Assembly: GCA_020851735.1 (NCBI GenBank)
Contig: JADZCD010000022.1
Location: forward strand, 6,438 to 70,437
Origin: Phycisphaeraceae bacterium
GTDB taxonomy: Bacteria > Planctomycetota > Phycisphaerae > Phycisphaerales > Phycisphaeraceae
Reading direction: 5' to 3'
Length of the DNA stretch: 64,000 nucleotides
The notes below the pieces were generated by a model that saw only the letters and a list, made by a program, of their open reading frames with translations, made no database searches and was not told the DNA's origin. The position numbers and the translations under genes were made by a program. Position 1 is the first letter of the stretch; every line of letters begins with the position of its first letter. Shown piece by piece: positions 15,156 through 53,943 of the stretch.

Positions 15156-16643
15156 ATGGCCAAGATTGATCCGGCGCTTTGGCGCGACATGATGGATTAT
15201 CTGCGTCGCCGGCATGCTCCGATCTGCCGGCAGTGGTTTGAGAATTTGCGTCCGGTGGAGCTGGACTCGGGTCTCTTAAAGATCCACACCGAGACGCGGA
15301 TTCAACAGAACTACCTGCAGAAGCGCTGCGCCGAGCAGTTCACGGAAGCGGCGCAGGCAGCCACGGGCGCGTTGGTGGCGGTGCGATTCATCAATCTGGA
15401 AGGTCACAACGGCGGCGACGGCCACGAACGCGTGGGCGCCGCGGCCGGCGGAGCTTCGGCGGGCGTCGGTGGGGCCACTTCGGCTTCCGGGGGCGGGGGC
15501 AATTCCGGGGGGGGCGTGGCGACGGCGGCGGCGCCGGTGGCGATCAGGGGGCGATCGGAAGTGCAGGTCATCGAGTTGCGCAGCCAAGGCAATGACGCGC
15601 TTGAGCCTGACGAGTTACTTCTGAGTCCCGACTACACCTTTGACACTTTTGTGACCGGTCCCAACAACCGTCTGGCTTATGCGGCCGCGGTGGCGGTGGC
15701 CAATCAACCCGGGACGGCCTACAACCCGTTGTTCATTCATGGCGGGGTGGGGCTGGGCAAGACGCACCTGTTGCAGGCCATCTGTCAGAAGATTCTCCAG
15801 GTCAATCCCAAGGCCCGCATCTGCTACCTGTCCTGCGACGCGTTTATGAATCGCTTCCTGGATTGCGTGCAAAGCGGGAAGATGAACGAATTCCGCAACC
15901 GCTACCGCCACGTGGACGTGCTGGTGATCGACGACATCCACTTCCTGGCCAAGCGGGAGCAATCGCAGGAAGAGTTCTTCCATACTTTTAACGCCCTTTA
16001 TCAGAGCAATCGGCAGCTGGTGCTCTCCAGCGATTCGCCCCCGGCCGACATTCCGCAGCTTGAGGAGCGGCTGGTAAGCCGGTTCCAGTGGGGACTGGTG
16101 GCGGAAGTTTCCAAGCCGGCGTATGAGACGAGGGTAGGCATCGTGCGGGCCAAGGCCAAGCTGCGAGGGATCGTGCTGCCCGACGACGTGGTGAGCTACA
16201 TCGCCGCGAAGATTGACTCCAACGCCCGCGAGCTGGAAGGGGCCATCACCACCGTGCAAGGCTGCGCCGCCCTGCAGGATCAGGAAATCTCCCTGGAGCT
16301 GGCCAAAAACGCCCTGGGTGAGCCGGGCCTGGAATCGCGCGGCAGCCATCAAGTGACGCTGCAGAACATCATCGACGTGGTAACCGAGTTCTACAACGTC
16401 AAGCTCAGCGACCTGCAGAGCAAGCGGCGGCACAAGTCCATCACCCTGCCGCGCCAGGTGTGCATGTGGCTGGCCCGCAAGCGAACGCGCTTCAGCCTCC
16501 AGGAGATCGGCGGGTACTTCGGCGGGCGGGATCATACAACGGTGATGCACTCGATCGACATCATCGAGGAGCGCATGGGCGCGGATTCGAACTTCGGCAA
16601 GCAGATCGAGCAACTCGACGGCCGGCTTACTTCCACCAAGTGA
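15156..16643 (+). CDS. dnaA: chromosomal replication initiator DnaA
   Basis: AAA+ core NPLFIHGGVGLGKTHLLQAI and VLVIDDIHFL, with the C-terminal DNA-binding motif GGRDHTTVMHSI. The domain-II linker carries repeat-derived Gly/Ser/Ala sequence. Confidence 0.96.
   Translation: MAKIDPALWRDMMDYLRRRHAPICRQWFENLRPVELDSGLLKIHTETRIQQNYLQKRCAEQFTEAAQAATGALVAVRFINLEGHNGGDGHERVGAAAGGASAGVGGATSASGGGGNSGGGVATAAAPVAIRGRSEVQVIELRSQGNDALEPDELLLSPDYTFDTFVTGPNNRLAYAAAVAVANQPGTAYNPLFIHGGVGLGKTHLLQAICQKILQVNPKARICYLSCDAFMNRFLDCVQSGKMNEFRNRYRHVDVLVIDDIHFLAKREQSQEEFFHTFNALYQSNRQLVLSSDSPPADIPQLEERLVSRFQWGLVAEVSKPAYETRVGIVRAKAKLRGIVLPDDVVSYIAAKIDSNARELEGAITTVQGCAALQDQEISLELAKNALGEPGLESRGSHQVTLQNIIDVVTEFYNVKLSDLQSKRRHKSITLPRQVCMWLARKRTRFSLQEIGGYFGGRDHTTVMHSIDIIEERMGADSNFGKQIEQLDGRLTSTK
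15475..15514. repeat. CTTCCGGGGG-type units inside the dnaA linker
   Basis: CCACTTCGGCTTCCGGGGGCGGGGGCAATTCCGGGGGGGG, translated as ..TSASGGGGNSGGG.. Confidence 0.8.
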
Positions 16644-19200: not shown

Positions 19201-21510
19201 ATGGATAAACAGGGGACGGTAGCGGCGAGCGATGGATTGACCCGGGCCAAGTCGCCGCGGTTCTTGAACCGCGAGCTTAGTTGGCTGGAGTTTAACCGTC
19301 GGGTATTGCATGAGGCTTTGGACGAGCGCACGCCGCTTTTGGAGCGGGTGTTTTTCCTGTCGATTTTCAATTCCAATCTGGACGAATTTTTCCAGAAGCG
19401 TGTGGGCGGCCTGCGCCGGCAGATCGCCGCTAACGTGTCCACGCGCACGCCCGACGGCCTAAGTCCAGCCGAGACGCTGGCAGCCATTCGGGCGGCGGTG
19501 TTGGAGATGCTCAATACCCAGGCGGATTGTTTCGTGACCCACATCAAGCCCGCTCTGCGCGAAAAGGGCGTGCACCTGTTGACCTGGGGCGAATTGACGG
19601 ACGCCGAGCGGGCCTGGGCGCGGGATTTTTATCGCGTCAATTTGTTTCCCGTGCTTACGCCGCTGGCGGTGGACCCGGGCCATCCGTTTCCGTTTATCAG
19701 TAATTTGAGCACGTCGCTGGGCGTGATTCTGCGCGTGCCGCGCGGCAGCGAGGGCGGCGGAGCTCTGCCGGGGACAAGGGACGATGCCCCGCTTGCGGAC
19801 GCGCCCGGCTCGTCGAGGCAGTCGCTTCCGGGGTCGCTTCCGGGGGCGGGGGCACTTCCGGGGGCGGAGGGGCAGGACGACAACTTATTCGGCGGGGAGC
19901 GGCAATTCGCGCGGGTGAAAGTGCCCGGCGTATTGCCGCGCTGGGTGCGGATCGGCGGGCCGGGCGCGGGTCAGCCGCTGCGTTTTGTGCACGTGGAGCA
20001 GATTCTGCGCCACAATTTTCAGGACTTGTTTGAGGGCATGGAGATTGAGGACGTCATGCCCTTCCGCATCACGCGCAACGCGGACGTGGAGCGTGACGAG
20101 GAAGACGCCGAGGACCTTTTGGAGCTGATCGAGCAGGAATTGCGGGATCGGCGTTTCGCCCCGGTGGTTCGGCTGGAGGTCGGGCCGGAGCCAAATGAAG
20201 CGATGGTGCGCTTCCTGATGAACGAGCTGGAGCTGAACCCCAGCGACGTCTACCGCATGCCGGGGGAGCTGGACTACACGGATTTGTCGGTGATTCACCA
20301 GTTGAATTTAGGTGAACTAAAGCACCCGCCGTTCACGCCCGTCTGCCCGCCGCGCCTGGCGGATGAGGAAGCCGATATTTTCAGCGTCATCCGGGCGGGC
20401 GACGTGCTGGTGCACCATCCGTACGAATCCTTTAAGACCAGCGTGGAGCGGTTCATCCGCACCGCGGCTGACGATCCGAAAGTGATCGCCATCAAGCAGA
20501 CGCTCTATCGGACCAACCCCAACTCGCCGTTTATTCCCGACCTGATGCGGGCCGCGGAGTCCGGCAAGCAGGTGATCTGTCTGGTGGAGCTTAAGGCCCG
20601 CTTTGACGAAGAGCGGAACATCCAGATGGCCCAGCAGCTGGAGAAGGCCGGCGTGCACGTGGTGTACGGCATGGTGGGCTTAAAGACGCACACCAAGACG
20701 GCCATGGTGGTGCGCCAGGAAGCCGAGGGCGTGCGGGTGTACGCCCACATCGGCACGGGCAACTACAACTCGCAGACGGCTCAGATGTACACGGATTTGG
20801 GCCTGTTTACCTGCAATCCGGCTTATACCAACGACGTGGTGGAGCTGTTTCATTATCTGACGGGCCGGAGCATCAAGCGCGATTTTAAGACGCTGCTGGT
20901 GGCCCCCACGAACATGCGGCGGCGCTTTACCGAGATGATCGACCGCGAGATCGCCTTGGCCGAAACCTGGAAGCAGCGCGGCAGCCGGGCCGACGACCCG
21001 GAGCGCCCGCGGATCATCGCCAAGATGAACAGCCTGGAGGACGTGAAGATGTGCGAGAAGCTTTACGAAGCTTCCGCGGCCGGGGTGCGCATCGACCTGA
21101 TCGTGCGCGGGTTCTGCTGCCTGACGCCGAGCGTGGCGGGGTTAAGCCAAAACATCCGCGTGACCAGCACCATCGGGCGCTTCCTGGAGCACTCGCGCAT
21201 CTACTACTTCCACAATGCCGGCAAGGGCGAGTATTACATCGGGTCGGCTGACTGGATGTACCGCAACTTAAACAACCGGGTGGAGTGCATCGCGCCGGTG
21301 CTGGATTCCTCATTGCATCCGAAGCTGCGGCAGATCCTGGACGTCATGCTGGCCGACCGGCGGCAGACGTGGGACATGCTCCCGGACGGCTGCTACGCGC
21401 AGCGCCAGCCCGACGGCGCCGACGCCACCGCCGCCTGCGGCACGCACCAGGCCCTGATGGACGTCGCCCGCCGGGATGCGGCGCCGCATGGGGAGGCGGA
21501 GGGGAAGTGA
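19201..21510 (+). CDS. ppk: polyphosphate kinase 1
   Basis: FLNRELSWLEFNRRVLHEA..FLSIFNSNLDEFF, with C-terminal HxK PLD-like motifs (LKTHTKTAMVV, RFLEHSRIYYF). Confidence 0.95.
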   Translation: MDKQGTVAASDGLTRAKSPRFLNRELSWLEFNRRVLHEALDERTPLLERVFFLSIFNSNLDEFFQKRVGGLRRQIAANVSTRTPDGLSPAETLAAIRAAVLEMLNTQADCFVTHIKPALREKGVHLLTWGELTDAERAWARDFYRVNLFPVLTPLAVDPGHPFPFISNLSTSLGVILRVPRGSEGGGALPGTRDDAPLADAPGSSRQSLPGSLPGAGALPGAEGQDDNLFGGERQFARVKVPGVLPRWVRIGGPGAGQPLRFVHVEQILRHNFQDLFEGMEIEDVMPFRITRNADVERDEEDAEDLLELIEQELRDRRFAPVVRLEVGPEPNEAMVRFLMNELELNPSDVYRMPGELDYTDLSVIHQLNLGELKHPPFTPVCPPRLADEEADIFSVIRAGDVLVHHPYESFKTSVERFIRTAADDPKVIAIKQTLYRTNPNSPFIPDLMRAAESGKQVICLVELKARFDEERNIQMAQQLEKAGVHVVYGMVGLKTHTKTAMVVRQEAEGVRVYAHIGTGNYNSQTAQMYTDLGLFTCNPAYTNDVVELFHYLTGRSIKRDFKTLLVAPTNMRRRFTEMIDREIALAETWKQRGSRADDPERPRIIAKMNSLEDVKMCEKLYEASAAGVRIDLIVRGFCCLTPSVAGLSQNIRVTSTIGRFLEHSRIYYFHNAGKGEYYIGSADWMYRNLNNRVECIAPVLDSSLHPKLRQILDVMLADRRQTWDMLPDGCYAQRQPDGADATAACGTHQALMDVARRDAAPHGEAEGK
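19821..19870. repeat. CTTCCGGGG tandem units inside ppk1
   Basis: GTCGCTTCCGGGGTCGCTTCCGGGGGCGGGGGCACTTCCGGGGGCGGAGG, translated as SLPGSLPGAGALPGAEG. Confidence 0.85.
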
Positions 21511-23065: not shown

Positions 23066-24679
23066 TTACCCCCCCAGATGCGGCTGACTCTGCTGGGCCT
23101 GATTCTGTATTTGCGGGAACAGCCGGCGGGCCACCAAGCGCAGCACCTGGTCTTCCAAGTCCTTGATCATGTAGTGGTGCACGGGCGGCTTGTAGTTGTT
23201 AAAGAGCATGGAGAACGCGATCACCCGATAGCCGTTAAAGTCCGGCGTGGTGCTGGACGTGGGGATCACGGCCGGATCGGTCGGCACGAGCATGTAGCCG
23301 GTCAGGGCGGTGACAGCCCGGATGTAGCCGCTCTTGGCCACCACCAAGGCGGGCATGTCCGCGCCGGGGTTTAAGCGTTTTTCCAGCGTGCCGCTGTTGC
23401 CGGCTACGGCCATGCTGTGCAGATAGATCGGCCCGAGTTGCGGATCGCCATACAGGTCGGCCAGCAGTTCCACCAGCACGCGGGCGGTGACGCGATTTTC
23501 CCGGCTCATGCCGCTGCCGTCATCCACGTGCACCACCGCGGCCGAGGCGCCCAGCCGGCTGGTGAGAAACGAGCGCACCGCGGCGGCCCCGTTGTTCCAG
23601 CTGCCCGGCGAGCCTGTGAGCTTCTGGCCCATGCGCTTGAGCAGCGATTCGGCGTAAAGATTGTGCGAGTCCTGATTGCAGCGGTCCAGGATCAGGGGCA
23701 TGGTCGTCTGCAGGGCGTGCAGGGTGGCGCCGGCCGGCAGCGTGCGATCCAGCGGGGCGCGGATCACGTCCTGAACCCCGATGCCCGCCTGGCGCAGGCG
23801 ATCAGCCAGAACGCGTCCGAAAAACAGCGGCGGATCGTGGATCGTTACCTGCACCGGCTCGGTCCGGCGATTCTTGATCTCGCCGCGCACCACGATTTCG
23901 TTGTTGCCCGTGACGCGCCCGACGCTGAAGGTGTCGCTCCGCCCGGTCAAGGCCCGGTTGGTGACGGTGATGATCGGCAGGCTGGGGGCGAAGTCCACCG
24001 ACGGAGCCATGCCCATCTGCGTCGGCTGCAGGAACACGTTCAAGCAGTTCTCGTGGAAATTCAAACCCGTCACTTCCGCGCAGTACCAGCGGTCCAGCTG
24101 ATCGGTCGGCCAGTTGGGGTGGATCCATTCCTGATCGAACGTCGCGTCGTCAATCATGAGGCTGCCGAACTGCTTCACGCCGGTGCGCACGACCGCCTGC
24201 ACCCACAGGTCCAGCAGCCACTCGACGTTCTTGCCATGCTCACCAAGGATCTTTTCATCGCCGAAGGACGGATCGCCGCTGCCGTGGACCAGCAGCGTGG
24301 GCAGATGGGCCTGGAACTGCTTCTGATCCTCGGGCAGGAGGTTGATCCACTCCGCGGGCTGAATCATCCGCAGCTCCGTGCGGAAGACAAAGTCCGGGCC
24401 CAGCAGGTTGAGGGCGGCCGCGGTGGTCACCACCTTCATATTGCTGGCCGGCATCAGCGGCAGGTCGGGATGAATTTTGACCAGATCATCCCCAGTGGTC
24501 AGGTCGACTAGGTAAATGCTGTATTCCGCCTGCCCCAGATTTTGCTTGTTAAGCAGGGAACTGATTTCTGAATCGACGCCCGCCCAGGCCTGGCCGGCCG
24601 GGAGCAGGGTCAAAACCAATAAGCTAAGCAGGCACGAGGCCAACGCTTGGGACCAGAAAGAACGACTTGTCACAGGCAT
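23066..24679 (-). CDS. dacB: D-alanyl-D-alanine carboxypeptidase/endopeptidase (PBP4 family)
   Basis: SNMK (SxxK), DGSGMSRENRVT and KSGY motifs. I chose the start at 24679 because it gives a signal peptide and has GGAGGG 8 nt upstream; the ORF is open to 24757. Confidence 0.85.
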   Translation of the reverse strand: MPVTSRSFWSQALASCLLSLLVLTLLPAGQAWAGVDSEISSLLNKQNLGQAEYSIYLVDLTTGDDLVKIHPDLPLMPASNMKVVTTAAALNLLGPDFVFRTELRMIQPAEWINLLPEDQKQFQAHLPTLLVHGSGDPSFGDEKILGEHGKNVEWLLDLWVQAVVRTGVKQFGSLMIDDATFDQEWIHPNWPTDQLDRWYCAEVTGLNFHENCLNVFLQPTQMGMAPSVDFAPSLPIITVTNRALTGRSDTFSVGRVTGNNEIVVRGEIKNRRTEPVQVTIHDPPLFFGRVLADRLRQAGIGVQDVIRAPLDRTLPAGATLHALQTTMPLILDRCNQDSHNLYAESLLKRMGQKLTGSPGSWNNGAAAVRSFLTSRLGASAAVVHVDDGSGMSRENRVTARVLVELLADLYGDPQLGPIYLHSMAVAGNSGTLEKRLNPGADMPALVVAKSGYIRAVTALTGYMLVPTDPAVIPTSSTTPDFNGYRVIAFSMLFNNYKPPVHHYMIKDLEDQVLRLVARRLFPQIQNQAQQSQPHLGG

Positions 24680-24807
24680 CCGCAAAACCCTCCGTAGTAT
24701 TCGCAGTCCAGTCGCCATCCCTGGCGTCCTTCCGGGCATATTATGCCAACCAGCCACGGCTTGCGTTCCCAGACGTCCGCCACCTGGTCCGGGCAGTCCG
24801 CCCAGAG

Positions 24808-24890
24808 GCCTTCCGAGGGGCGCTTCCAGGGGAGCCCTTCCCGGGGGGACACTTCCGGGGGTTCCGGGGGCGTTCCGGGGGCGGGGGCAT
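24808..24890. repeat. CTTCCGGGG-type tandem array (intergenic)
   Basis: CCTTCCGAGGGGCGCTTCCAGGGGAGCCCTTCCCGGGGGGACACTTCCGGGGGTTCCGGGGGCGTTCCGGGGGCGGGGGC. Confidence 0.85.
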
Positions 24891-24928
24891 CTATTACATC
24901 GGAAATGCGAGGTTGGGCGGGGCCAAAA

Positions 24929-26095
24929 TTAAGCCAGGACCTGGCGATAGATCTGGGCGAAGGCCAGGTGCATCTGATCCTGATCGAAAAGTGACTTCTG
25001 CCGGGCCAGCCCAGCCTCACCCAGCAAGCGGCGCAGGGGCGCGTCCTCCAGGAGGTTCAGGACGTTGTCCGCCAGCCGTTGGCTGTCGCTGCGCGGGGAG
25101 AGCAGGCCGGTGATCCCGTGCTCAATGATCTCGCCGTTGCCCCCCACGTCCGTGGCGGCAATCGGCAGGCCGGCCGCCATCGCTTCTAAGAGCGTGACGG
25201 AAATCCCCTCGCTTAAACTGCTGAGCACAAACACGTCCGCAGCCGCCATCAGGGCTGGAATATCCGTGCGCACGCCCAGGAATCGCACGTGGGCGGCAGT
25301 GCCCAGTTCCGCCGCCTGCTTTTCCAGGTCGGAGCGCAGTTCACCGTCGCCGGCAAGCAGCAGAACGGCGTTCGGGCAGCGCACCTTGACGTGGGCCATG
25401 GCCCGCAGCGCGGTGGCGTGATCCTTGACCGGGTGCAGCCGGGCCACCTGCAGCACCACCGGCTGGTTGGCGGTGATGCCCAGCTCCGCGCGGATCTTCT
25501 CCCGTAGCGTTCCGGCCTCCGCGTCGGGCAATGCAAACTTCCGGGGGTCGATGCCGTTGTGGATCACGTCGATGCGGGCTGCGTCGATACCCTCGCTGCG
25601 GATCAAGGCTTGCTTAATAAATTGCCCCACCGCCGTGACGCGATCGGACGGGCGCAACAGCACCTTGTTGGCCCAGATGCGCTTAGGGCGCGGCGGGTCG
25701 GGGTAATGGCGGCCATGCTCGGTGAACACGATTCCGCGCAGGTCTTTTAGCCCGCGCAACGTGGCGCTCCGCCGCAGCCGGGACAGGGCGGCGTAGAAAA
25801 AGGGCGTGTACTGGTGGGCGTGAACCATGTTGACGCGCTGTTGCTGGAGGAATCGGCCCAGCCGGTGGGTCAGCGCCAGGTCAAAGCCCGGGCGGCGCTC
25901 CAGGTTCGCGACGGTAAAGCCCTCCGCTCGAAGCTGATCCGCCAACGGGCCGAGCCCGTCTAAACAGAAGAAAACAAAACGGAACTGCTGGCGCAAATTG
26001 CGGGCGATGTGAACCGCCAGAATCTCCGCCCCGGCAAAGTCCAGCCGATGCAGGCCATGAGCAATCGTCGGCAGGGAATCAGTCACCGCAATCAC
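24929..26095 (-). CDS. GT4-family glycosyltransferase
   Basis: C-terminal domain RLHPVKDH..LLLAGDGELR..VFVLSSLSEGISVTLLEAMAAGLPIAATDVGGNGEII. Confidence 0.85.
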   Translation of the reverse strand: MIAVTDSLPTIAHGLHRLDFAGAEILAVHIARNLRQQFRFVFFCLDGLGPLADQLRAEGFTVANLERRPGFDLALTHRLGRFLQQQRVNMVHAHQYTPFFYAALSRLRRSATLRGLKDLRGIVFTEHGRHYPDPPRPKRIWANKVLLRPSDRVTAVGQFIKQALIRSEGIDAARIDVIHNGIDPRKFALPDAEAGTLREKIRAELGITANQPVVLQVARLHPVKDHATALRAMAHVKVRCPNAVLLLAGDGELRSDLEKQAAELGTAAHVRFLGVRTDIPALMAAADVFVLSSLSEGISVTLLEAMAAGLPIAATDVGGNGEIIEHGITGLLSPRSDSQRLADNVLNLLEDAPLRRLLGEAGLARQKSLFDQDQMHLAFAQIYRQVLA

Positions 26096-26174
26096 CGTGT
26101 AAAAAAAGTCCGCTGGACACCAGCATAAGCACGCTCAAAGTAGATCGACCGTCAAGGCCAAAACCCCGCAAAGC

Positions 26175-26290
26175 TCCCCCGCCCCCGCCCCCGGAAGTGC
26201 CCCCGGAAGTCCCCCCCGGAAGCGCCCCCTCCCCCGGAAACTCCCTGTGGGGTGCCATACAGCATCCCGCAGGGTGCTGTGTGCTGCTGT
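26175..26290. repeat. CCCCGGAAG tandem units plus hairpin C
   Basis: CCCCCGCCCCCGCCCCCGGAAGTGCCCCCGGAAGTCCCCCCCGGAAGCGCC..GGTGCCATACAGCATCCCGCAGGGTGCTGTGTGCTG. Confidence 0.85.
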
Positions 26291-31001: not shown

Positions 31002-31095
31002 AGCTTCCGAGGACGAGGGTATTCGCTTCCGGGGGTTCCCGGGGGCGGAGTTAACTTCCGGGGGTGGAGCTAACTTCCGGGGGGCCGGGGAGGTC
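31002..31095. repeat. CTTCCGGGG tandem array overlapping the yggS 3' end
   Basis: TAGCTTCCGAGG..TCGCTTCCGGGGGTTCCCGGGGGCGGAGTTAACTTCCGGGGGTGGAGCTAACTTCCGGGGGGCC. The yggS stop TAG (31070-31072) lies in a unit spacer. Confidence 0.85.
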
Positions 31096-31975
31096 CGAAT
31101 AACGCGGTTCCCACGCGCACCAGGTTGGCGCCTTCCTCGATGGCCACCATAAAGTCACCGCTCATGCCCATCGACAACAGATCGAAATGCCCACCCAGCG
31201 CCGGGCGCCCGCGCAGTTCAGCGAACAACTCCGCGCCGCGGGCGAATATCGGCCGGGCGTTTTCCGGGTTGTCGCTGTAAGGAGCCATGGTCATCAGCCC
31301 CCGCACACGCAGTCCCGGCAAGCGGGCGGCATAGTCCACCAGGTTTCTTGCTTCGGCCAGACTCGCCCCGTGCTTGCTCTCTTCCCCGCTGATGTTCACT
31401 TCGATCAAGACATCCAGACGCTCCCAGGCGTCGCTCGGCCCAACCGCGTCGTCCAGGCCGCGGGCCTGCTGGGCTGCTTCGTTTAGTTTCTCAGCCAGAC
31501 GCACGCTGTCGACGCCATGAATCAACGCGGCCAACCCCATCACCGCCTTGGCTTTGTTCCTCTGTAAATGACCGATCATGTGCCACCGCACCCCCCCCGC
31601 CCCCGGAAGGCCCGGAAGTCCCGGAAGTGATCTTGACCGGTCCGCCTGTAAAGCCCCCGGATCTGCCGGGGGGTGCGTCCCCGCCCCCCCACTGCCTTGT
31701 TCGCGTTTTCCGGCTTCGATCGGTTCAATCACCGGAGGCCAGCCGCCGGCAGCCAACTCGCTTGCTCGCTGGCTGAGCTGCTGGACACGGTTCTCCCCTA
31801 AGTGTCTGTGGCCGATCTCCAGGAGCTCTCGAATCTGACCCATCGACGCGCTCTTGGTCACCGCCACCAGACGCACCGAATCCGCCGGCCGATGGCTGCG
31901 GGCCGCCGCCGCCGCGATCTGCTCCATGACTCGTTGATATGCCTGCCGCATCAGAACCCGATATTTTACCCCCAC
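31070..31975 (-). CDS. yggS: YggS-family pyridoxal-phosphate homeostasis protein with an internal repeat insert
   Basis: VAVTKS..GENRVQQL..WHMIGHLQRNK..LRGLMTMAP..LSMGMSGDF..GANLVRVGTALFG. About 55 extra residues lie between GENRVQ and WHMIGHLQ. Confidence 0.85.
   Translation of the reverse strand: MGVKYRVLMRQAYQRVMEQIAAAAARSHRPADSVRLVAVTKSASMGQIRELLEIGHRHLGENRVQQLSQRASELAAGGWPPVIEPIEAGKREQGSGGAGTHPPADPGALQADRSRSLPGLPGLPGAGGVRWHMIGHLQRNKAKAVMGLAALIHGVDSVRLAEKLNEAAQQARGLDDAVGPSDAWERLDVLIEVNISGEESKHGASLAEARNLVDYAARLPGLRVRGLMTMAPYSDNPENARPIFARGAELFAELRGRPALGGHFDLLSMGMSGDFMVAIEEGANLVRVGTALFGPPRPPGS
31589..31680. repeat. CCGGAAG units plus hairpin-B variant inside yggS
   Basis: CCCCCCCCGCCCCCGGAAGGCCCGGAAGTCCCGGAAGTG..AAAGCCCCCGGATCTGCCGGGGGGTGC. 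Confidence 0.85.
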
Positions 31976-32048: not shown

Positions 32049-32711
32049 TCACCCCGCCCGGCGGGACCGCGCTTCTTCCGATATGGTCTTCTCTTCTTCC
32101 GGCCCGACCACCGCCACCGGCTCCACCGCGACTATGGATCGGCGCAATCGCTGGTAAATCACCATCACCACGATTCCCACCACGATCGTGCCCACGATGA
32201 TCGCTTCCCAGTCCTTGATCTGTTCATGAATGCGATCGAACTCAGCCGCGAACAGGTACCCCAGCGTCACGATCGTCGGCACGCTGATCAGCGCCGCGGA
32301 ACCGTCAAAGACCACCATCTTCCACACCGGCGTGCGGCAGGCCCCCGCGGTGAAGAACACAGCCGAGCGCACGCCCGGCAAAAAGCGCGCGACAAACAGC
32401 GTCTTGCCGCCATGCTTGATGAACGCCCGCTCTGCCTTGTCCAGATGACGCTGGTCCAGGAAACGACGCAGCAGCGGCAGCTTCGTCGCATGCTGGCCGA
32501 ACTTTCGCCCTACAAAGAACAGGATGATGTCCGCGCCGATCACCGCCAGAAAAGTAATCGGAATCATCAACCACAATTCCGCTGTGCCGATGGCGCACAG
32601 ATAACCAGCTATTAAGAGAGGCAAGTCCTCAGGCAGAGGTAATCCGAATCCGCTGGCCAGCAGCACCAGGACCACGCCCAGGTAAGTGAAATGCGTTATG
32701 AATTGTTCCAT
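32049..32711 (-). CDS. DedA-family membrane protein
   Basis: GLPLPEDLPLLIAGYL..GRKFG..FIKHGGKTLFVARFLPGVRS. Confidence 0.85.
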   Translation of the reverse strand: MEQFITHFTYLGVVLVLLASGFGLPLPEDLPLLIAGYLCAIGTAELWLMIPITFLAVIGADIILFFVGRKFGQHATKLPLLRRFLDQRHLDKAERAFIKHGGKTLFVARFLPGVRSAVFFTAGACRTPVWKMVVFDGSAALISVPTIVTLGYLFAAEFDRIHEQIKDWEAIIVGTIVVGIVVMVIYQRLRRSIVAVEPVAVVGPEEEKTISEEARSRRAG

Positions 32712-32887
32712 GGGGTGCTCTATAGTGGCGTGGCGTCGACGGCTGGGCGTCGGCCTACACCACTATCGTCACTTCCTTACCGTTTTTCCCACATCCTGGT
32801 TCCATCAATTCCGGGCAACCTCAGTAAGTAGATCCTTTTGGGCCTTCCAGGTGGCTTTTTGGACCCTTACAAGGACCGAAGTCTAAT

Positions 32888-32946
32888 TTTCCGGGGTTTA
32901 CGGGTACTTCCGGGGGTACTTCCGGGGGTACTTCCGGAGGTGGGGT
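32888..32946. repeat. three near-perfect 12-nt units GTACTTCCGGGG
   Basis: Units at 32904-32915, 32916-32927 and 32928-32939 (the third is GTACTTCCGGAG). Confidence 0.9.
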
Positions 32947-34404
32947 CTATTCTAGTGAGCCGGGGTCTGGTTGGGCAGCTTTATTTTTTTGAGCTTGACG
33001 AATCTTTTGGCCAACCCACGCCAAGGCCTCCTCCCGGCTGGCAAATTCACCCTCCAGCTGTGCATCGTAAGTCATTTGCAGCAATTGACCTAACTCAGGT
33101 CCTGGCTGACAGCCTAAGGCTATCAGGTCATTTCCATCAATCAATGGTTTTGGCGCTACGCCTTGGGCGATCAAGTCCGGCGATTCCCTGGCGATAGTCT
33201 TCCCAATTTCACCTAGCAACCCCCCCACCGCCTTTTGCCCAGCGTCCTTGCTCTTCGCCCAGCCCTCGCCCATGGCCTTGAGCAATTGGCAGGCAGCCTC
33301 GAATCGATACTCCGCCATCAGGTGCTTCTTGCCTGCGATGTTCTCCTGGGACCAGGAAAGCAGCTTGACCATCACTTCGATGGTCTCCTGCAGGTCCGAC
33401 CGCTGATCATTGCTCAGGCACAGCGCCTCGCGCCAGCGATTGACCCATTCTTCAAGCCCAGAATGAACACCGTTGACAATTGGCAGGCAGATTACGACGT
33501 CAGCCGACCCATTCTGCGAACCGTGTTCGCGCGTGGTCCCCAATTCACGCGAACGACGTTCAAAATCCGCCCAGAACGTTCGACCAAACCGCCTGTCCAG
33601 CATCCATGCCGCCAATGCGGCGCCGTAGTCCGCCGTGGGGTCTTGCTCTAAAGCACTCAAAATAAGCAAATTACATGTGCTGTTGTCCTCCTGGAGCGTG
33701 GGTGCGTCCAGGGCTAATTCCTGAACCAAGTTCGCCGCCAGAGCAGGCCTTGGCCCGGTCAACATCCAAAGCACTTCCTGTCCGATGCGTTCCCGGCTGA
33801 TGCGATTAAGGCTCGTCGCATGCCTGCGGATGGCTTTGGCGGTCTGCTCTTCGATAGTGAACCCCAATCGCGCGGCAAAACGCACCGCCCTCAGCAAGCG
33901 CAAAAAATCCTCGCCAAATCGCTGATCAGCGTTCCCTACGCTGCGCAAAATCTTCCGCCGCAGGTCATCCAGCCCCCCCACGTAGTCAATAATCCGCTGT
34001 TTCGGATCCTCCGCCAGGGGATTCTCAAACAGGGCGTTAACCGTAAAATCCCGCCGGCTGGCGTCGCTGGGGGCGTCGGAAAACTCCACAAAGTCGGGCC
34101 GACGACCATCGCTGTATTCCCCCTCCCGCCGAAACGTCGCCACCTCCACGTAAACCCCCAACTGCCGCACCAGCACCACCCCAAAGGCCTCGCCCACCAG
34201 CCTGCTGCCCCGAAACAGCGATCGCACCCGCTCCGGCACCGCGTCCGTCGCCACGTCGTAGTCCTTCGGCTCCAATCCCAAAAGCTCATCGCGCACGCAA
34301 CCCCCCGCCAGATAGGCCACGTGGCCTGCCTGCTGAAGCACCTTCACAATGGCTGTCGCAGCTTCACGAGCGGGATGATCTTGATCTAGGGAAGACCCAG
34401 TCAT
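32947..34404 (-). CDS. CCA-adding enzyme / poly(A) polymerase family tRNA nucleotidyltransferase
   Basis: AYLAGGCVRDELLGLEPKDYDVATDA and RRDFTVNAL. I chose the start at 34404 (MTGSSLDQD) because the 37-codon upstream extension to 34515 is entirely repeat DNA. Confidence 0.85.
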   Translation of the reverse strand: MTGSSLDQDHPAREAATAIVKVLQQAGHVAYLAGGCVRDELLGLEPKDYDVATDAVPERVRSLFRGSRLVGEAFGVVLVRQLGVYVEVATFRREGEYSDGRRPDFVEFSDAPSDASRRDFTVNALFENPLAEDPKQRIIDYVGGLDDLRRKILRSVGNADQRFGEDFLRLLRAVRFAARLGFTIEEQTAKAIRRHATSLNRISRERIGQEVLWMLTGPRPALAANLVQELALDAPTLQEDNSTCNLLILSALEQDPTADYGAALAAWMLDRRFGRTFWADFERRSRELGTTREHGSQNGSADVVICLPIVNGVHSGLEEWVNRWREALCLSNDQRSDLQETIEVMVKLLSWSQENIAGKKHLMAEYRFEAACQLLKAMGEGWAKSKDAGQKAVGGLLGEIGKTIARESPDLIAQGVAPKPLIDGNDLIALGCQPGPELGQLLQMTYDAQLEGEFASREEALAWVGQKIRQAQKNKAAQPDPGSLE

Positions 34405-34416
34405 GCCTCGCCAGTG

Positions 34417-34556
34417 TACCCCCCCACCCCCACCCCCGGAAGCCCCCACCCCCCGGAAGTTTCCCCCGGAAGTCCCCCCGGAAGTTCCCCCGGAAGGCAT
34501 GGCCCCGCAAGCCACCGCTCCGCAAGTGGATACCCCCGGAAGTGGATACCCCCTGG
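34417..34556. repeat. CCCCGGAAG tandem array (about 6 units)
   Basis: CCCCCACCCCCGGAAGCCCCCACCCCCCGGAAGTTTCCCCCGGAAGTCCCCCCGGAAGTTCCCCCGGAAGGC..ACCCCCGGAAGTGGATACCCCC. Confidence 0.9.
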
Positions 34557-40736: not shown

Positions 40737-43106
40737 TCAATCGCCCAGCGTCGGCATCTTCTGATCCCCCGCCACCCCCTCATACACCGCGTCACGGACC
40801 TGCTTGGTGTATTTGTCATAATCCTTGCCCTGGATGATCCGCCCCACCACGATGATTAAATCCTTGTCCAAGTCGATCCACTGGATCGTCGAGGACGCCG
40901 CCGCCCCACCCACGATCCCCTTGCCGAACGGATACAGTCCCACCCCCCGCGTATCGTGAACCTCCGGGAAGAATTCCTCCGTCGGCTTAGGCAAAAACGC
41001 CTCAAACACCGCCGGGGAGTAAAACTCCAGCTGGCCGTACGATCCCTTGTTCAAAATCACCTGGCTCATCTTGGCCAGGCTCAGCGTCGACGCTTCTGTG
41101 CCGTAAGCCGCGTCCTCAATCGTCGCTTCGTTAATGCCCAGCGGGCCGAAGTAATTCTCCTGCATCAGCCGAATAAAACTTTTACCGCTGACCACCTCCA
41201 TCGCCTTGGCTGCCAGGTCATGTCCCATGCCGTTGTAATACGTCACCTTGTGCGGGTGAATCTGCGGCAGTTGCGCCGCCATGGCGTTCTCCAGCCAGGC
41301 GTTCTCCAACCCGCCCCACATCCCGTGCCCCTGATACCCGCTGACAAACTCAAAACACGCCCGGAAGGTGATCACCTTTTCCCCCTCGACGGGGAAATCC
41401 GGCAGGAACTTGCCCACCGGATCATCCAGCTTGATCAACCCCTGGCTGACGAATTGCCCGAACATCTGCGCCGCCAGCGTTTTGGTGATCGACGCCAGCG
41501 GGAACTTCGTCTCCATCGTCGCCGGCTTGCCGTCCATTTGCCCAAACGCTTCCTGATAGACAATCACCCCATGCCGCGCGATCACAATGGCGAACGGCCG
41601 CTGACTCACCTCGTACCACTCCTGACAAATCGCGTGCAGCTTCTTAGCCGTGCCTTCCTTCATTCCCGCTTCCTTTTCACTGCCCGCCCGCAACACCGGG
41701 GCTGGCGCGCCCGCTTTCTTCGTCGGCAATTTCAGCGCCGACTCGCCCGGCGCTAAGCCCAAGAGCTTCCTCTTTAACGCCAACTGAAATTCTTGACCCA
41801 TGACCCCCGGAAGAACCCCCGGAAGTACCCCCGGAAATACCCCCGGACTATCCGCCTGCTTGGCCGCCTCACCCTTGGGGCGCATCTCCAGCATCGCCGC
41901 CGTCACGATCGCCCCCGCTTCCTCCCGGATCAGCCACGGCATCATCTGCTTGCTGATGTACTCGCTGATCGCCCCCCCCTGCTCCTGCCACGCCTGGGCA
42001 TCAAACGGCTCGCCCGGATACGCCATGCTCAGCTGCGGCGCCTGCCGCGTGCGATCCTCCAGCCCAGGCAAAAACACAAACGTCAGCCCCCGCCGAATCT
42101 TGATCCCCCCCACTTTGGCCGGCAATTCCGCTTCCACCAGGGCTGCATATCGCCCCGGCTGCGTCGGCAGCGTCACTTCCTCTAACTGCCGATCAAACCA
42201 CCGCACCTTCAACGGCACCGCGCCCACCAGCCGCTGGATCCGATCCTGCTCCTTCCATTGCAGCATCGGAAAGCTCCCGCCGCCGAACACAAACGCCTGT
42301 CCCTCCAGCGGCCGGATCTCCCATGCCCCGATATCGCTAAGAAACCGCTCGTCCAGCTTCTTCTGGTTGTCCTTTTCGCTGTAAACCTCCAACACAAAGT
42401 TCCACCCGCCCCCGCGATTGTCCACCTTGACCAATACCGGGTTAAGCCCCTTGTGCAGCTCCACCGCGAAGTTGTCATTCCATTTCTCCGCCCCGCGCTG
42501 CAGCGTCCAGAGCGTGTGCACCGGCTGATGATTCACCCACACCTTGGCCGCGTCGTCCGAACCAAAGTGAAAATAAACCTTCTGATCCACCGGCGAATCC
42601 AAGTAGCAAAACGCATACGCCACCTTCACCCCCGCGCCCCCCGCCGCGCCCGATCCCCCGCTGGCCACCAGACTCTTGGCCCCCACCGAAAAATTCACAT
42701 ACCCCTCCCCGTCCGCTTCCGTCGCGTTCACCGTGGCCAATTGCTCGGCCCCTTGTTCATCCACAAAGCCGATCTTCTTGCCCACCTCCAACTCCGCCTG
42801 CGCTTCCCCGCCCAGCTCCTTTAAGTAATCCTCGTGATACCCCTTCCGCACCACGCCATCCGCCAGCGGCGCGGCCAGTTCCGGATTCGGGAACGGCCCG
42901 ACCACCACCCACCCCCGGATCAGCCCTTCTTCACTTAGCGGATTAATCGCCGCATCGCTCGTTGCCGTGGCCGTTGTGGCTGCCTCCCCCGCCGCGCCGC
43001 TCTCCGCGGGCTTGCTCTGCCCGTGACTTAATCCATTGAACCACCCCAGGCTGACCAGCGTTACCGCCACGACCAATCCCAATTGCTTTTCGATACGCAT
43101 GAACAT
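40737..43106 (-). CDS. secreted large protein with a C-terminal beta-lactamase-family serine hydrolase domain
   Basis: Signal peptide. The C-terminal half has FPLASITKTLAA (SxxK). Contains the repeat insert PGVFPGVLPGVLPGV. Confidence 0.75.
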   Translation of the reverse strand: MFMRIEKQLGLVVAVTLVSLGWFNGLSHGQSKPAESGAAGEAATTATATSDAAINPLSEEGLIRGWVVVGPFPNPELAAPLADGVVRKGYHEDYLKELGGEAQAELEVGKKIGFVDEQGAEQLATVNATEADGEGYVNFSVGAKSLVASGGSGAAGGAGVKVAYAFCYLDSPVDQKVYFHFGSDDAAKVWVNHQPVHTLWTLQRGAEKWNDNFAVELHKGLNPVLVKVDNRGGGWNFVLEVYSEKDNQKKLDERFLSDIGAWEIRPLEGQAFVFGGGSFPMLQWKEQDRIQRLVGAVPLKVRWFDRQLEEVTLPTQPGRYAALVEAELPAKVGGIKIRRGLTFVFLPGLEDRTRQAPQLSMAYPGEPFDAQAWQEQGGAISEYISKQMMPWLIREEAGAIVTAAMLEMRPKGEAAKQADSPGVFPGVLPGVLPGVMGQEFQLALKRKLLGLAPGESALKLPTKKAGAPAPVLRAGSEKEAGMKEGTAKKLHAICQEWYEVSQRPFAIVIARHGVIVYQEAFGQMDGKPATMETKFPLASITKTLAAQMFGQFVSQGLIKLDDPVGKFLPDFPVEGEKVITFRACFEFVSGYQGHGMWGGLENAWLENAMAAQLPQIHPHKVTYYNGMGHDLAAKAMEVVSGKSFIRLMQENYFGPLGINEATIEDAAYGTEASTLSLAKMSQVILNKGSYGQLEFYSPAVFEAFLPKPTEEFFPEVHDTRGVGLYPFGKGIVGGAAASSTIQWIDLDKDLIIVVGRIIQGKDYDKYTKQVRDAVYEGVAGDQKMPTLGD
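41804..41847. repeat. 12-nt CCCCCGGAAGnA units inside a CDS
   Basis: CCCCCGGAAGAACCCCCGGAAGTACCCCCGGAAATACCCCCGGA. Confidence 0.9.
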
Positions 43107-44205: not shown

Positions 44206-44283
<78 letters not shown>

Positions 44284-47438: not shown

Positions 47439-48605
47439 ATGTCGTCCAACCTCAAAAAGAAAATGCCGCGTCTGGGTAGGGGCCTAAGCAGCCTGATGGC
47501 TCACCCTGTAAGGGTCGCCGTTGAGCCTGAAAATCCAGCGGAAACCGCCGCCCAGAGCCAGGAACAAGCCGCGCCAAGCTCATCGCAAGGCCAAGCCGTG
47601 GCGACCCTGGACAGACATGCAAACCCAGAAAGCTCGCCTGCTCAGCAGGCTGACAGCCAAAGCAGTGGGGCGGTGATCCTGCACCTCACGCTCGAAGCGA
47701 TCACTCCCAACCCCATGCAGCCGCGCGCGCACTTTGATGAAGACAGCCTGCGCCGCCTGGCGGATTCGATTCGTTCCGAAGGCGTCATGCAGCCGATCAT
47801 CGTCCGCCCATCGGCACCCCGTAATGGCGAGATTCAACTTCCAGCAGTGGGGGGGATTTCTGGTTTTCCGGTGGTTCCGGGGATTCCGGGGGTGGGTGGG
47901 CTGCCATCCACCTCGTATGAATTGGTCGCCGGCGAGCGCCGCTGGCGGGCCGCCAAACTCGCGGGCCTTGCCAAAGTGCCCGCCATCGTCCGCGACTTAG
48001 ATGACCGCCAGCTCGCCGAGTGGGCCCTGGTAGAGAATCTCCAGCGTGAGGACCTAAACCCGCTCGAACGCGCCACCGCCCTGAAAAACCTCGCCGAGCG
48101 GTTCTCCTTAAGCCACGAAGAAATCGCCCAAAGGGTCGGCATCGAACGCCCAACAATCAGTAACTTATTGCGATTACTGGACTTACATTTAGACGTGCAG
48201 GCCTTGATTCGCAGCGGCGTTCTCTCCGCCGGCCAGGGGAAAGCGTTGGCTGGCGTCGAGTCCAGCCCCATGCAGATTCTCTTAGCCCAGCGAGCGGTGC
48301 GTGAAGCCTGGTCGGTCCGCCGCCTGGAAGCCGAGGTCCGCAAAGTCGCCGCCGGCAGCGCCAGCCCGGTTGGCGATCCCGACAATACAGGTGGACCAGC
48401 CGCCAGCCTGTCCCGCGGCAGCAGTGGGGGGGCCAAACGCTCCGCCTACTTAGCCGACGTCGAAGCCCAGATCAGCCAACAGCTGCAGACCAAAGTCCAC
48501 ATCAAGCCCGGACGCAAGAAAGGCTCCGGCGCCTTGATCCTCGAGTTCTATTCCTTAGATCAGTTCGACACCCTCATGAAACGCCTGGGCGTGGAAGTCG
48601 GCTAA
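47439..48605 (+). CDS. parB: chromosome partitioning protein ParB (CTP-dependent clamp family)
   Basis: RLGRGLSSLM, IxPNPMQPR, GVMQPIIVRP, ELVAGERRWRAAKLAG, HTH region, and a C-terminal LILEFYSLDQFDTLMKRL. AAGGAGG lies 7 nt upstream of the ATG at 47439. The longer 47223 ORF would read through both parS sites. Confidence 0.93.
   Translation: MSSNLKKKMPRLGRGLSSLMAHPVRVAVEPENPAETAAQSQEQAAPSSSQGQAVATLDRHANPESSPAQQADSQSSGAVILHLTLEAITPNPMQPRAHFDEDSLRRLADSIRSEGVMQPIIVRPSAPRNGEIQLPAVGGISGFPVVPGIPGVGGLPSTSYELVAGERRWRAAKLAGLAKVPAIVRDLDDRQLAEWALVENLQREDLNPLERATALKNLAERFSLSHEEIAQRVGIERPTISNLLRLLDLHLDVQALIRSGVLSAGQGKALAGVESSPMQILLAQRAVREAWSVRRLEAEVRKVAAGSASPVGDPDNTGGPAASLSRGSSGGAKRSAYLADVEAQISQQLQTKVHIKPGRKKGSGALILEFYSLDQFDTLMKRLGVEVG
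47838..47900. repeat. degenerate TTCCGG(G) units inside the parB N-terminal domain
   Basis: ACTTCCAGCAGTGGGGGGGATTTCTGGTTTTCCGGTGGTTCCGGGGATTCCGGGGGTGGGTGGG, translated as LPAVGGISGFPVVPGIPGVGG. Confidence 0.75.
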
Positions 48606-50077: not shown

Positions 50078-51448
50078 CTACCCCCGCGGGCTGAACGCCA
50101 GGTCCGTCCTCAGCCACTTCCGATACGCCACCCCCGCGATGCCCACGCCCAACAACGCCTGGACGCCAGATAGATAAGCCAACGCGGAAACGCTTATGAA
50201 TTCCTTTAATACGATTGGGGACATGAAAACGATAACGAAGGCCAAACCCAGCCAGACATCACGCCACCTAAGACGCAACATAGCCATCGGCCAGCATGAG
50301 ATTCCCCAAAGGCTGATCTGACAAAAACCCGAGAGAAGAAGCGCAAACCAGAAATTCCCCGTCTGCAGCAGCGCCGGCTGCCAAAGTGCTGTGGCGGCAA
50401 TCATCGCTGCAGCCAAACTGAGCCAAACGGACATCACATCGCACAACATGGCCAAACCGATCTGTCGGAAGTATGCCCGCCGATAAATCGGCCGCAATGA
50501 TTCCGTGGCCAAAACCCGATAGCGCTGCACGTAACAGGACAGGGATACCATCCATGCCCAATAGGTGAATAGAAACGGGTTAAAACCGTGACTGTCGCTT
50601 GGCCCGCCGCGTCGGCCGTCAAGGCCCATCAACATCGTCATCAGAACGAAACAGACCAGCCCCATGGCTCTTGGCGAAAGCAATCCCAACTTGGTGAAGC
50701 GCCAGCGGTTGATCCGCTGCCAGGCATTTTTCGCCGGCCTGAAAACCGCTTCGCCGGGCCGACCCATGAACCAACGCTGCCACGATGACTCCGCGAGGTA
50801 TTGTTTTTGGGTAAAGCCCGTGGCGCCCCCGGTCTTCCAGCGCATCAATCCGCGAAAGCCTCTGCTATCCTCCCGCCAGCCCGCCAAGTGCTTGGCCAAA
50901 GCCCAACCTGCCAGAATGCTGGTTAACCACAGCGGTATCGCCCAGGCATACGGCAGACCATCCGGCCATGCCTTGAACCATTGATGGTGAGAGTGAATCA
51001 TGGGTATGGAGAACCCTATCGATCCTGCCAAGACGAAAATCCATACCCCACTGGGCATCACGACCGCTAGCCATAACATCGCGATGGTCGTAGCGAAGAA
51101 CAAAGACGTCACCGTCAGTACCGACGCCTGGCAAGCCAGGGCGAAGGTCGCGGGAAAGGCGATGTAGCACAACACCACGATCAACCCCGCAATCAGCACA
51201 TGCGGCCCGGCAAAGCCCGGAAGCAGCCGTGAACGGGGATTGGCAAATTGGGAGTTCAGTTGTGCGAGTAATCCCAAGAGCAGCTGCATAATCACAAACG
51301 GGAGAAAAGCGAATTGAAGCAACATCTTGTTGTCGTGGCTCAGAAGGACAACTAGCCCGATATAGGCCAAAACCGTTGGAATTAACATCCACCACATCAG
51401 CGGCCGCGTGACGTACGTCAGCAAAACCTGCTTGCAGCGCTCAAGCAT
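50078..51448 (-). CDS. polytopic membrane protein (putative permease partner of the upstream ABC ATPase)
   Basis: About 10 hydrophobic segments. Its start overlaps the ABC ATPase stop by 8 nt. Confidence 0.6.
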   Translation of the reverse strand: MLERCKQVLLTYVTRPLMWWMLIPTVLAYIGLVVLLSHDNKMLLQFAFLPFVIMQLLLGLLAQLNSQFANPRSRLLPGFAGPHVLIAGLIVVLCYIAFPATFALACQASVLTVTSLFFATTIAMLWLAVVMPSGVWIFVLAGSIGFSIPMIHSHHQWFKAWPDGLPYAWAIPLWLTSILAGWALAKHLAGWREDSRGFRGLMRWKTGGATGFTQKQYLAESSWQRWFMGRPGEAVFRPAKNAWQRINRWRFTKLGLLSPRAMGLVCFVLMTMLMGLDGRRGGPSDSHGFNPFLFTYWAWMVSLSCYVQRYRVLATESLRPIYRRAYFRQIGLAMLCDVMSVWLSLAAAMIAATALWQPALLQTGNFWFALLLSGFCQISLWGISCWPMAMLRLRWRDVWLGLAFVIVFMSPIVLKEFISVSALAYLSGVQALLGVGIAGVAYRKWLRTDLAFSPRG

Positions 51449-53832: not shown

Positions 53833-53943
53833 TAGCCCCGCATGGAAATGCGGGGCCGGCTTGGTAATTCTCCGGGGGCCACTTCCGGGGTAGCTTCCGG
53901 GGGGCACTTCCGGGGGACCTTCCGGGGGACCTTCCGGGGGGGG
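53833..53943 (+). repeat. element A copy 1 (hairpin + CGGCTTGG + CTTCCGGGG array)
   Basis: TAGCCCCGCATGGAAATGCGGGGCCGGCTTGGTAATTCTCCGGGGGCCACTTCCGGGGTAGCTTCCGGGGGGCACTTCCGGGGGACCTTCCGGGGGACCTTCCGGGGGGGG. Confidence 0.92.

Follow-up and report, generated by a model that had tools for sequence, protein, structure and literature searches.

The window, that is, the whole 64-kb stretch of DNA analysed here, contains at 32904-32939 a short tandem array that lies between two genes read from the minus strand. The features at this locus are as follows.

32049-32711, minus strand: gene for a VTT/DedA-domain membrane protein (PF09335), the downstream neighbour of the array.
32889-32903, plus strand: degenerate unit, TTCCGGGGTTTACGG, that immediately precedes the clean array.
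32904-32939, plus strand: clean array of three copies (GTACTTCCGGGG twice, then GTACTTCCGGAG), intergenic.
32947-34347, minus strand: gene for a PolyA_pol / CCA-adding-type nucleotidyltransferase (PF01743, E = 2.4e-32).

The third copy of the clean array differs from the first two by a single G>A change, and TRF delimits the repeat at 32902-32941 with a period of 12, 3.3 copies and 96% matches. The array is noncoding, beginning 8 nt past the stop codon of the PolyA_pol-family gene and lying 190 nt upstream of the VTT/DedA-type gene. A preliminary description of this DNA had translated the unit by hand and found every frame open. This translation was right (VLPG, YFRG and TSGG forward; PRKY, PGST and PEVP in reverse; zero stops), and TRF and six-frame translation agree that 32904-32939 has a period of 12 and is stop-free in all six frames. 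The accompanying statement that the element is tolerated in coding DNA does not apply to this array, which is itself intergenic, but holds for other arrays that lie in frame within genes. A terminator or promoter role for the array at 32904-32939 was considered and rejected, as no promoter-like or terminator-like consensus is present within 32600-33050.

The exact 10-mer CTTCCGGGGG occurs 46 times in the window, where 0.5 occurrences are expected, and the array is accompanied by many others, several of them within conserved genes.

15484-15508, plus strand: two units in dnaA, residues ~110-118, ahead of the AAA+ domain (Pfam).
19821-19867, plus strand: three units in ppk1, residues ~197-208, splitting the Pfam PP_kinase middle domain.
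26171-26236, minus strand: intergenic four-unit array with mixed spacings, beside a hairpin module.
31026-31083, plus strand: units across the 3' end and stop of a yggS-like gene (31070-31975, minus strand).
31600-31628, minus strand: three 9-nt units within the same yggS-like gene.
34421-34553, minus strand: five to six units with G-runs, preceding the start of the PolyA_pol gene; a long ORF reads through them as GGTSGGTSGG, but they fall outside the best-scoring start.
41803-41847, minus strand: period-12 array in a beta-lactamase-family esterase gene (40737-43100), read as PGVFPGVLPGVLPGV (TRF, 3.8 copies).
47866-47893, plus strand: three 9-nt units in parB, with the ParB_N match broken into two stretches (Pfam).
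51592-51722, minus strand: two unit arrays with hairpin modules, in the C-terminal part of an ABC ATPase gene (51441-52520).
53871-53940, plus strand: intergenic five-unit array with spacings of 12, 13, 12 and 12, after a hairpin module.
57767-60421, minus strand: priA gene.
59278-59311, minus strand: sense-oriented units in priA, SGGTSGGGALPG, in a loop of variable length across the family, between Walker A and the helicase motif that follows.
59886-59967, plus strand: hairpin module and two units in priA, antisense (...PPGSDPGS...), in the linker that follows the 3'-DNA-binding domain.

The period-12 array that had been placed within a coding sequence at 41804-41847 is indeed there (TRF, 41803-41847), its host being a 787-aa beta-lactamase-family esterase and not priA. 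As had also been stated, the units of priA point both ways, one being on the minus strand (59278-59287) and two on the plus strand (59886-59895, 59958-59967). Ahead of the PolyA_pol gene, the long ORF runs 56 codons upstream through the unit array at 34421-34515 (GGTSGGTSGGNFRG...), and the start indicated by coding potential lies downstream of it, so that arrays at 5' ends can inflate annotated N-termini. The yggS-like gene ends inside an array (31070-31083), with a stop codon supplied by the unit. Two further properties of the window concern other sequence. Between two genes at 44206-44283 there is a perfect (CGGCAAT)x11 heptanucleotide tract (100% matches), the period of which, unlike that of the 12-nt family, is not a multiple of three. 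The GC skew is +0.05 to +0.19 left of ~24 kb and negative rightward (down to -0.27), switching near 24000-26000, where the cumulative skew has its maximum; the same window holds dnaA (15156-16643) and parB (47673-48605). The leading strand is usually G-rich, and under this rule the polarity at 24000-26000 looks terminus-like rather than origin-like.

The genome as a whole comprises 3.56 Mb at 62.5% G+C, 82% of it coding, with 2674 genes derived from home-made codon-usage calls. CTTCCGGGGG is its top 10-mer (1182 copies), and the exact sequence CTTCCGGGG occurs 1410 times against ~73 expected. These tallies use exact matches; allowing one mismatch gave 3696 matches, ~1760 of which are expected at this G+C. 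Spacers hold 751 of the CTTCCGGGG units (1.18/kb) and coding sequences 659 (0.225/kb), placing 47% of the units in coding DNA at a density five times below that of spacers. At least one unit is present in 340 genes (13%, about one in eight), and both orientations are used in genes genome-wide. Units chain into 468 arrays of 2-11 head-to-tail copies, and 42% of these ~470 arrays lie inside genes. The spacing inside arrays varies from 8 to 21 nt, and genic inserts span 24-130 nt. A literature search for the motif returned no paper containing it, only unrelated primer matches.

The spacing of the units distinguishes genes from spacers. Same-strand adjacent units in coding sequences are separated by a multiple of three (3n) in 197 of 204 cases (97%), most often by 12 nt (83), 18 nt (44) or 15 nt (28), as compared with 166 of 304 cases (55%) in spacers, where 12 (96), 13 (42), 18 (31), 14 (19) and 11 (15) nt prevail (Fisher p = 6e-29). 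Likewise, all spacings are 3n in 92% of the 195 arrays in coding sequences and in 48% of the 259 arrays in spacers. The share of 3n in spacers is itself above one third (p = 3e-14), and 12 nt is the commonest spacing in spacers and coding sequences alike, indicating that the 12-nt period is intrinsic to the element, as the preliminary description had supposed. When only 3n periods are considered, 12 is if anything relatively less frequent in genes than in spacers, and 15 and 21 more frequent (p = 0.035). Since 45% of spacer spacings are not 3n, the almost exclusive use of 3n in genes is for the most part no more than an ORF needs to survive, and thus reflects a survival filter.

The absence of stop codons, which had been put forward as the reason why the element is tolerated in genes, does not carry this explanation. 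When 12-mers drawn at random from this genome are repeated in tandem, 59% are stop-free in all six frames, and six-frame openness was for this reason rejected as a statistical signal. Units of the family are open in ~85-93% of cases, spacers and genes alike (87% and 93%, respectively, for 12-nt units), and stop codons can be created only via two or three variable bases, with variants such as ...GGGGTCA, ...GGGCTA and ...GGGTAA occurring. The lack of stops is thus real but ordinary, a by-product of the G+C-rich core and no special adaptation. Nor are the frames used equally. All six frames are used by genic units, in the following numbers.

LPG[A/V] frame: 177 genic units.
[T/A]SGG frame: 157 genic units.
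[A/T]PGS frame: 186 genic units.
PPE frame: 76 genic units.
PRK frame: 33 genic units.
FRG frame: 30 genic units.

This distribution is far from even (chi-square p = 5e-49), and the LPG, SGG and PGS frames account for 79% of genic units, indicating that the encoded peptide matters besides stop avoidance, which is necessary yet insufficient for tolerance in genes. Of the 33 units in the PRK frame, 16 hit a stop codon at once, so that the unit supplies the last codons and the stop of the gene. It might be argued from the peptides that the repeats have been selected as flexible Gly/Ser/Pro protein linkers, with the likeness of their DNA due to convergent codon choice, but despite the 79% of genic units giving LPG, SGG or PGS peptides and the location of inserts in linkers and loops, this is highly improbable, being contradicted by the non-coding majority of units, as a single nucleotide unit is read in six frames and is five times denser in non-coding DNA, the spacer variants GCA, GCG, GTA and GTG are common to genes and spacers, and homologues at 61-71% identity have no insert.

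Comparison with homologues shows that the genic arrays examined, those of the esterase and priA, are clean insertions that preserve the frame. In the esterase, the array adds exactly 36 nt (12 aa) relative to eight homologues, one of which is 71% identical overall; homologues at 61-71% identity are without it. The empty site reads CCG AGC GTG in the homologues, and the filled site reads CCG GGG GTA TTT CCG GGG GTA CTT CCG GGG GTT CTT CCG GGG GTC. The priA units fall in two segments whose length varies among the 33 relatives compared. Relatives of priA are all from Phycisphaeraceae / Planctomycetota MAGs, the closest being 61% identical. In a strict but noisy test of the 60-codon flanks of 195 genic arrays, the host frame was best on both sides for 107, 33 lay near gene ends and 55 failed. 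Open frames contribute less to tolerance in genes than does purifying selection acting on period, frame and position.

Several properties of the arrays bear on how they arise. In spacer arrays, 153 of 271 consecutive spacings are equal to their neighbour, against a shuffle mean of 44 and a maximum of 68, and whole arrays can keep a single period throughout, with spacings such as 8 x10, 15 x7 and 12 x7. Adjacent 12-mers are identical in 40% of cases in spacers and 38% in coding sequences, as compared with 5-7% for random pairs, which points to local duplication. The intergenic arrays at C66:117514-117599 and C19:20836-20946 carry the same core at uniform periods of 8 nt (x11) and 15 nt (x8), respectively. 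The unit is no true Watson-Crick palindrome, and its G-rich strand self-pairs via G-C and G.T/G.U. As RNA this strand is predicted to fold at -24.6 kcal/mol (z = -3.3), with none of 200 shuffles as good; as DNA the predicted value is -8.5 kcal/mol (z = -2.3), two of the six strands tested being no better than shuffles. Slipped hairpins of the G-rich strand are therefore a plausible aid to slippage. Units are also found at 24 of 138 contig ends (17%), as compared with 2.5% of random positions, a figure that is only suggestive of alleles in view of an exact 127-nt overlap between ends, as expected from a k = 127 assembly graph, and the frequent involvement of other repeat families; the enrichment may stem from repeat-induced graph branching at k = 127 and not from heterogeneity. 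A separate dispersed repeat of ~130-500 nt, with copies 90-98% identical, is present at many contig ends (for example C22:78034-78370, C20:1-408, C69 and C57:7950-8390).

The family extends well beyond this genome. The double unit CTTCCGGGGGNNCTTCCGGGGG is found in 69 of 144 Phycisphaeraceae genomes, representing 39 of 70 genera, and the reversed control pattern in none, with 133 copies in this genome, 115 in the genome G104 and 0-24 within the sister genus g18. The present species was found once in the protein collection (a cluster of one member), an exact-protein look-up of the neighbouring gene gave no match, and a search of metagenome contigs for conspecific sequence yielded nothing closer than 49-61% identity. 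G104, the other unit-rich genome, has no orthologue of the esterase. The preliminary description had predicted length polymorphism between strains; the comparison was made in g18 (16 species), and its results refer to differences between species, not strains.

Within g18, the length of unit arrays at orthologous sites differs between species, often in exact 12-nt steps. At a site in mutS, compared in 13 species, four are empty (CGC CGG GGC GGN TGY), three have a short insert of ~10 nt without a unit, three have one unit and one has at least three, all in frame. A site in a VWA-like gene measures 93, 96, 105, 108, 111, 126 or 153 nt, corresponding to about zero, one or four to five units; one length of 107 nt is probably an alignment-window artefact. 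A further conserved gene, which we take to be RNase HII-like from one recognised motif, has, in one of 15 species, a 78-nt insert whose units face both ways. The intergenic site block B5 is too diverged in g18 for alignment. Nine orthologous sites with flanks 85-98% identical were compared between the sister species G050 and G046, and none of the nine has an identical unit array in both. Three show clean whole-unit changes (three versus one unit, -24 nt; two versus one, -12 nt; two versus three, +12 nt), and a fourth shows a net -12 nt (three versus one unit) with other sequence replaced. Three further sites differ by -21, -45 and -9 nt, and one site of equal length has units in G050 only. At the ninth (+45 nt), in a gene presumed carB-like from a conserved motif (L269, G046:C103:8091-8659; L252, G050:C64), G050 has two CCCCGGAAGTG units and G046 a different, 87-nt palindromic insert (GGTGAGTGG...CCACTCACC), so that this site appears to be a hotspot accepting different repeat families. 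As -21, -45, -9 and +45 nt are not unit multiples, other indel or replacement processes also act.

Together, the abundance, spacing statistics and frame bias of the units, the insertion status of genic arrays, the marks of local duplication and the unit-step differences between species are consistent with the notion, to which we assign a probability of roughly 70%, that this is a slippage-prone dispersed tandem repeat family, the genic arrays of which have been filtered by purifying selection on period, frame and site. The unit would consist of the core (C)TTCCGGGG(G) and a variable spacer of 0-10 nt, 12 nt being its commonest length. Arrays would lengthen and shorten in place through slipped-strand mispairing, which may be helped because the G-rich strand self-pairs. 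New arrays would arise chromosome-wide, about a quarter of them beside REP-like hairpin modules and the others alone, and the seeding of new sites may proceed via microhomology to native CCGGGG-like sequence. In spacers, any period would be retained. In genes, purifying selection would retain only arrays whose every step is 3n, which are read in frames encoding small, flexible residues (LPG[A/V], [T/A]SGG, [A/T]PGS) and are situated in linkers or length-variable loops, where the inserts are presumably neutral. The intrinsic 12-nt period would pre-adapt the element to coding DNA, and the outcome would be the presence of units in ~13% of genes, including dnaA, priA, parB and ppk1, and a fast change of protein length between related species. 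The preliminary description was thus right to regard the 12-nt period and slippage-type changes in copy number as real and relevant, whereas six-frame openness is not the key that it was taken to be.

Slippage leaves unexplained how one 10-mer reached more than 1000 separate sites. It is possible, though on the unlikely side, that the unit is a self-seeding micro-element that spreads independently of a transposase by template switching. A nascent strand at a native CCGGGG-like end would switch to an array elsewhere, copy one or more of its quasi-palindromic units and return, planting a new array that then grows by slippage. In both the esterase (CCG AGC GTG) and mutS (CGC CGG GGC GG), the empty site contains sequence of the form CCG...G, which is a hint in this direction, as are the lack of correspondence with Y1 transposases and the different repeats found at one carB-like site in sister species. 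If this were true, a 12-nt repeat could colonise a whole chromosome, and loops of the essential proteins DnaA, PriA, ParB and MutS would keep being remodelled across the Phycisphaeraceae.

A relationship with REP/REPIN-type elements has also to be considered, in which the units would be tails or arms of elements moved by a RayT-like Y1 transposase, with copy number fixed at insertion and slippage of minor importance. A perfect hairpin (stem of at least 8 bp, within 70 nt) accompanies 47 of 194 genic and 67 of 251 intergenic arrays (~25%), as compared with 3.6% of random positions, and five or more recurrent types of hairpin module adjoin arrays, indicating that part of the family travels as composite REP-like elements. 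Such composites of hairpin and units are also found in frame in genes, priA among them. Six weak Y1_Tnp (PF01797) matches are present in this genome, and REPs inside genes have been described from Opitutus terrae, a PVC relative, and from Rickettsia (PMC3733652). However, three quarters of the arrays are without such a hairpin, and the units GTACTTCCGGGG, GCACTTCCGGGG and GCGCTTCCGGGG are without the GTAG or CGTC tags of the REP super-families (PMC3733652). Across 41 genomes, no correspondence was seen between Y1_Tnp matches and unit counts, as the double unit is missing from G024, despite its 14 matches, and from G010 and G021, which have the strongest ones. Spacer arrays are proportional to spacer length and show no 3'-end preference, so that there is no concentration downstream of genes or in convergent spacers (21 versus 32 expected), and the exact one- or two-unit differences between species with conserved flanks, as well as the 40% identity of neighbouring units, are marks of slippage. 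An origin of the family as a whole in REP/REPIN elements is accordingly doubtful. In several family members, weak Y1_Tnp matches lie inside very long open frames of 1200-1400 aa (G000:C15:1696-1926, and similarly in G005, G012, G033 and G038), hosts that are unlike small stand-alone RayT genes.

The motif might instead be a selected DNA or RNA signal, for instance a site bound by a regulatory or nucleoid protein, an uptake-type sequence or a hairpin that stabilises mRNA, with genic copies being incidental. The ~20-fold over-representation of the core, its retention in 39 of 70 genera of the family, the fivefold higher density in spacers and the stable hairpin that a G-rich transcript is predicted to form would be in agreement with a signal, as would the slight preference for the C-rich strand as mRNA sense in co-directional spacers (85 versus 57). 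Against this, related genomes have anything from 0 to 133 copies and members of a single genus 0-24, units are freely gained and lost at orthologous sites, and the spacing within arrays varies over 8-21 nt. The orientation of units follows the local GC skew only weakly (774:636, or 55:45), on which grounds a replication-linked strand polarity was rejected, there is no preference among spacer types, and no terminator-like or promoter-like site is present at 32600-33050. A signal function as the reason for the family's existence is therefore quite improbable.

The preferred reading, a dispersed and slippage-prone repeat filtered by selection in genes, shows how much selfish repeat DNA a bacterial proteome can absorb, as hosts include the replication initiator, the primosome helicase and the partition protein. 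The element would contribute the 12-nt period and the stop-poor, G+C-rich core, whereas selection would contribute the 3n-only pattern, the three benign frames and the placement in loops. The unit-step differences between species make the arrays ready VNTR markers for uncultured Phycisphaeraceae populations, and the arrays represent natural experiments on insert-tolerant loops of conserved proteins. In practical terms, short-read assemblies break at arrays (17% of the contig ends in this genome), and arrays also lengthen ORFs at their ends, so that the annotation of starts and stops can be misled.

The family shares features with several known systems. The contingency repeats of Neisseria and Haemophilus, with unit lengths of 1, 2, 4, 5 and 7, shift reading frames or promoter spacing, and, like these loci, the present arrays are slippage-prone short tandem repeats within or beside genes. 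Unlike in contingency loci, 97% of genic spacings are 3n, and slippage would thus alter protein length and not on/off expression. HIP1 of cyanobacteria is a hyper-abundant oligomer occurring as single dispersed copies (PMC5861425). Similar to HIP1 and uptake sequences, one short word is here the commonest oligomer, present in genes and spacers across a clade, but it differs from them in its tandem arrays, variable copy number and highly uneven abundance between sister species, and from Chi, KOPS and DUS/USS in having tandem copies and no strong strand polarity (774:636).

The MIRUs of mycobacteria (Supply et al. 1997, summarised in PMC3184786) have units of ~40-100 bp and occupy ~40-50 loci within operons, in their intergenic parts. 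Like MIRU/VNTR loci, the arrays are dispersed tandem repeats with open frames that can overlap adjacent genes and vary in copy number between related genomes, but the units are 12 nt long and 42% of the ~470 arrays lie inside genes. Of the attributes of VNTRs and minisatellites, the family shows head-to-tail copies, likeness of neighbours with a uniform period within arrays, and whole-unit differences between g18 species.

In-frame insertion of repeats is known for the RPEs of Rickettsia and for GTAG and CGTC REPs in Opitutus terrae and others, frequently in genes of replication or repair and in some cases providing the stop codon (PMC3184786, PMC3733652), and Opitutus terrae, a PVC relative, has the most intragenic GTAG REPs recorded (PMC3733652). 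Like RPEs and intragenic REPs, the family is mostly intergenic, yet is also found in frame in conserved genes the orthologues of which lack it. The likeness extends to replication and repair hosts (priA and dnaA here, mutS in relatives) and to copies that supply C-termini and stops or overlap coding regions. An RPE, however, is a single palindromic insert of ~105-146 bp (Ogata et al. 2000, reviewed in PMC3184786 and PMC3733652), and a REP is a hairpin of 20-40 bp that bears a GTAG or CGTC tag (PMC3733652), whereas the family described here has a 12-nt unit in head-to-tail arrays, no tag and a copy number that shifts in unit steps between species. With 47% of its exact units in coding sequences, it also departs from the predominantly extragenic REPs. 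The family differs from these known systems in its 12-nt unit, tandem arrays, lack of REP tags, large genic share and turnover in unit steps.
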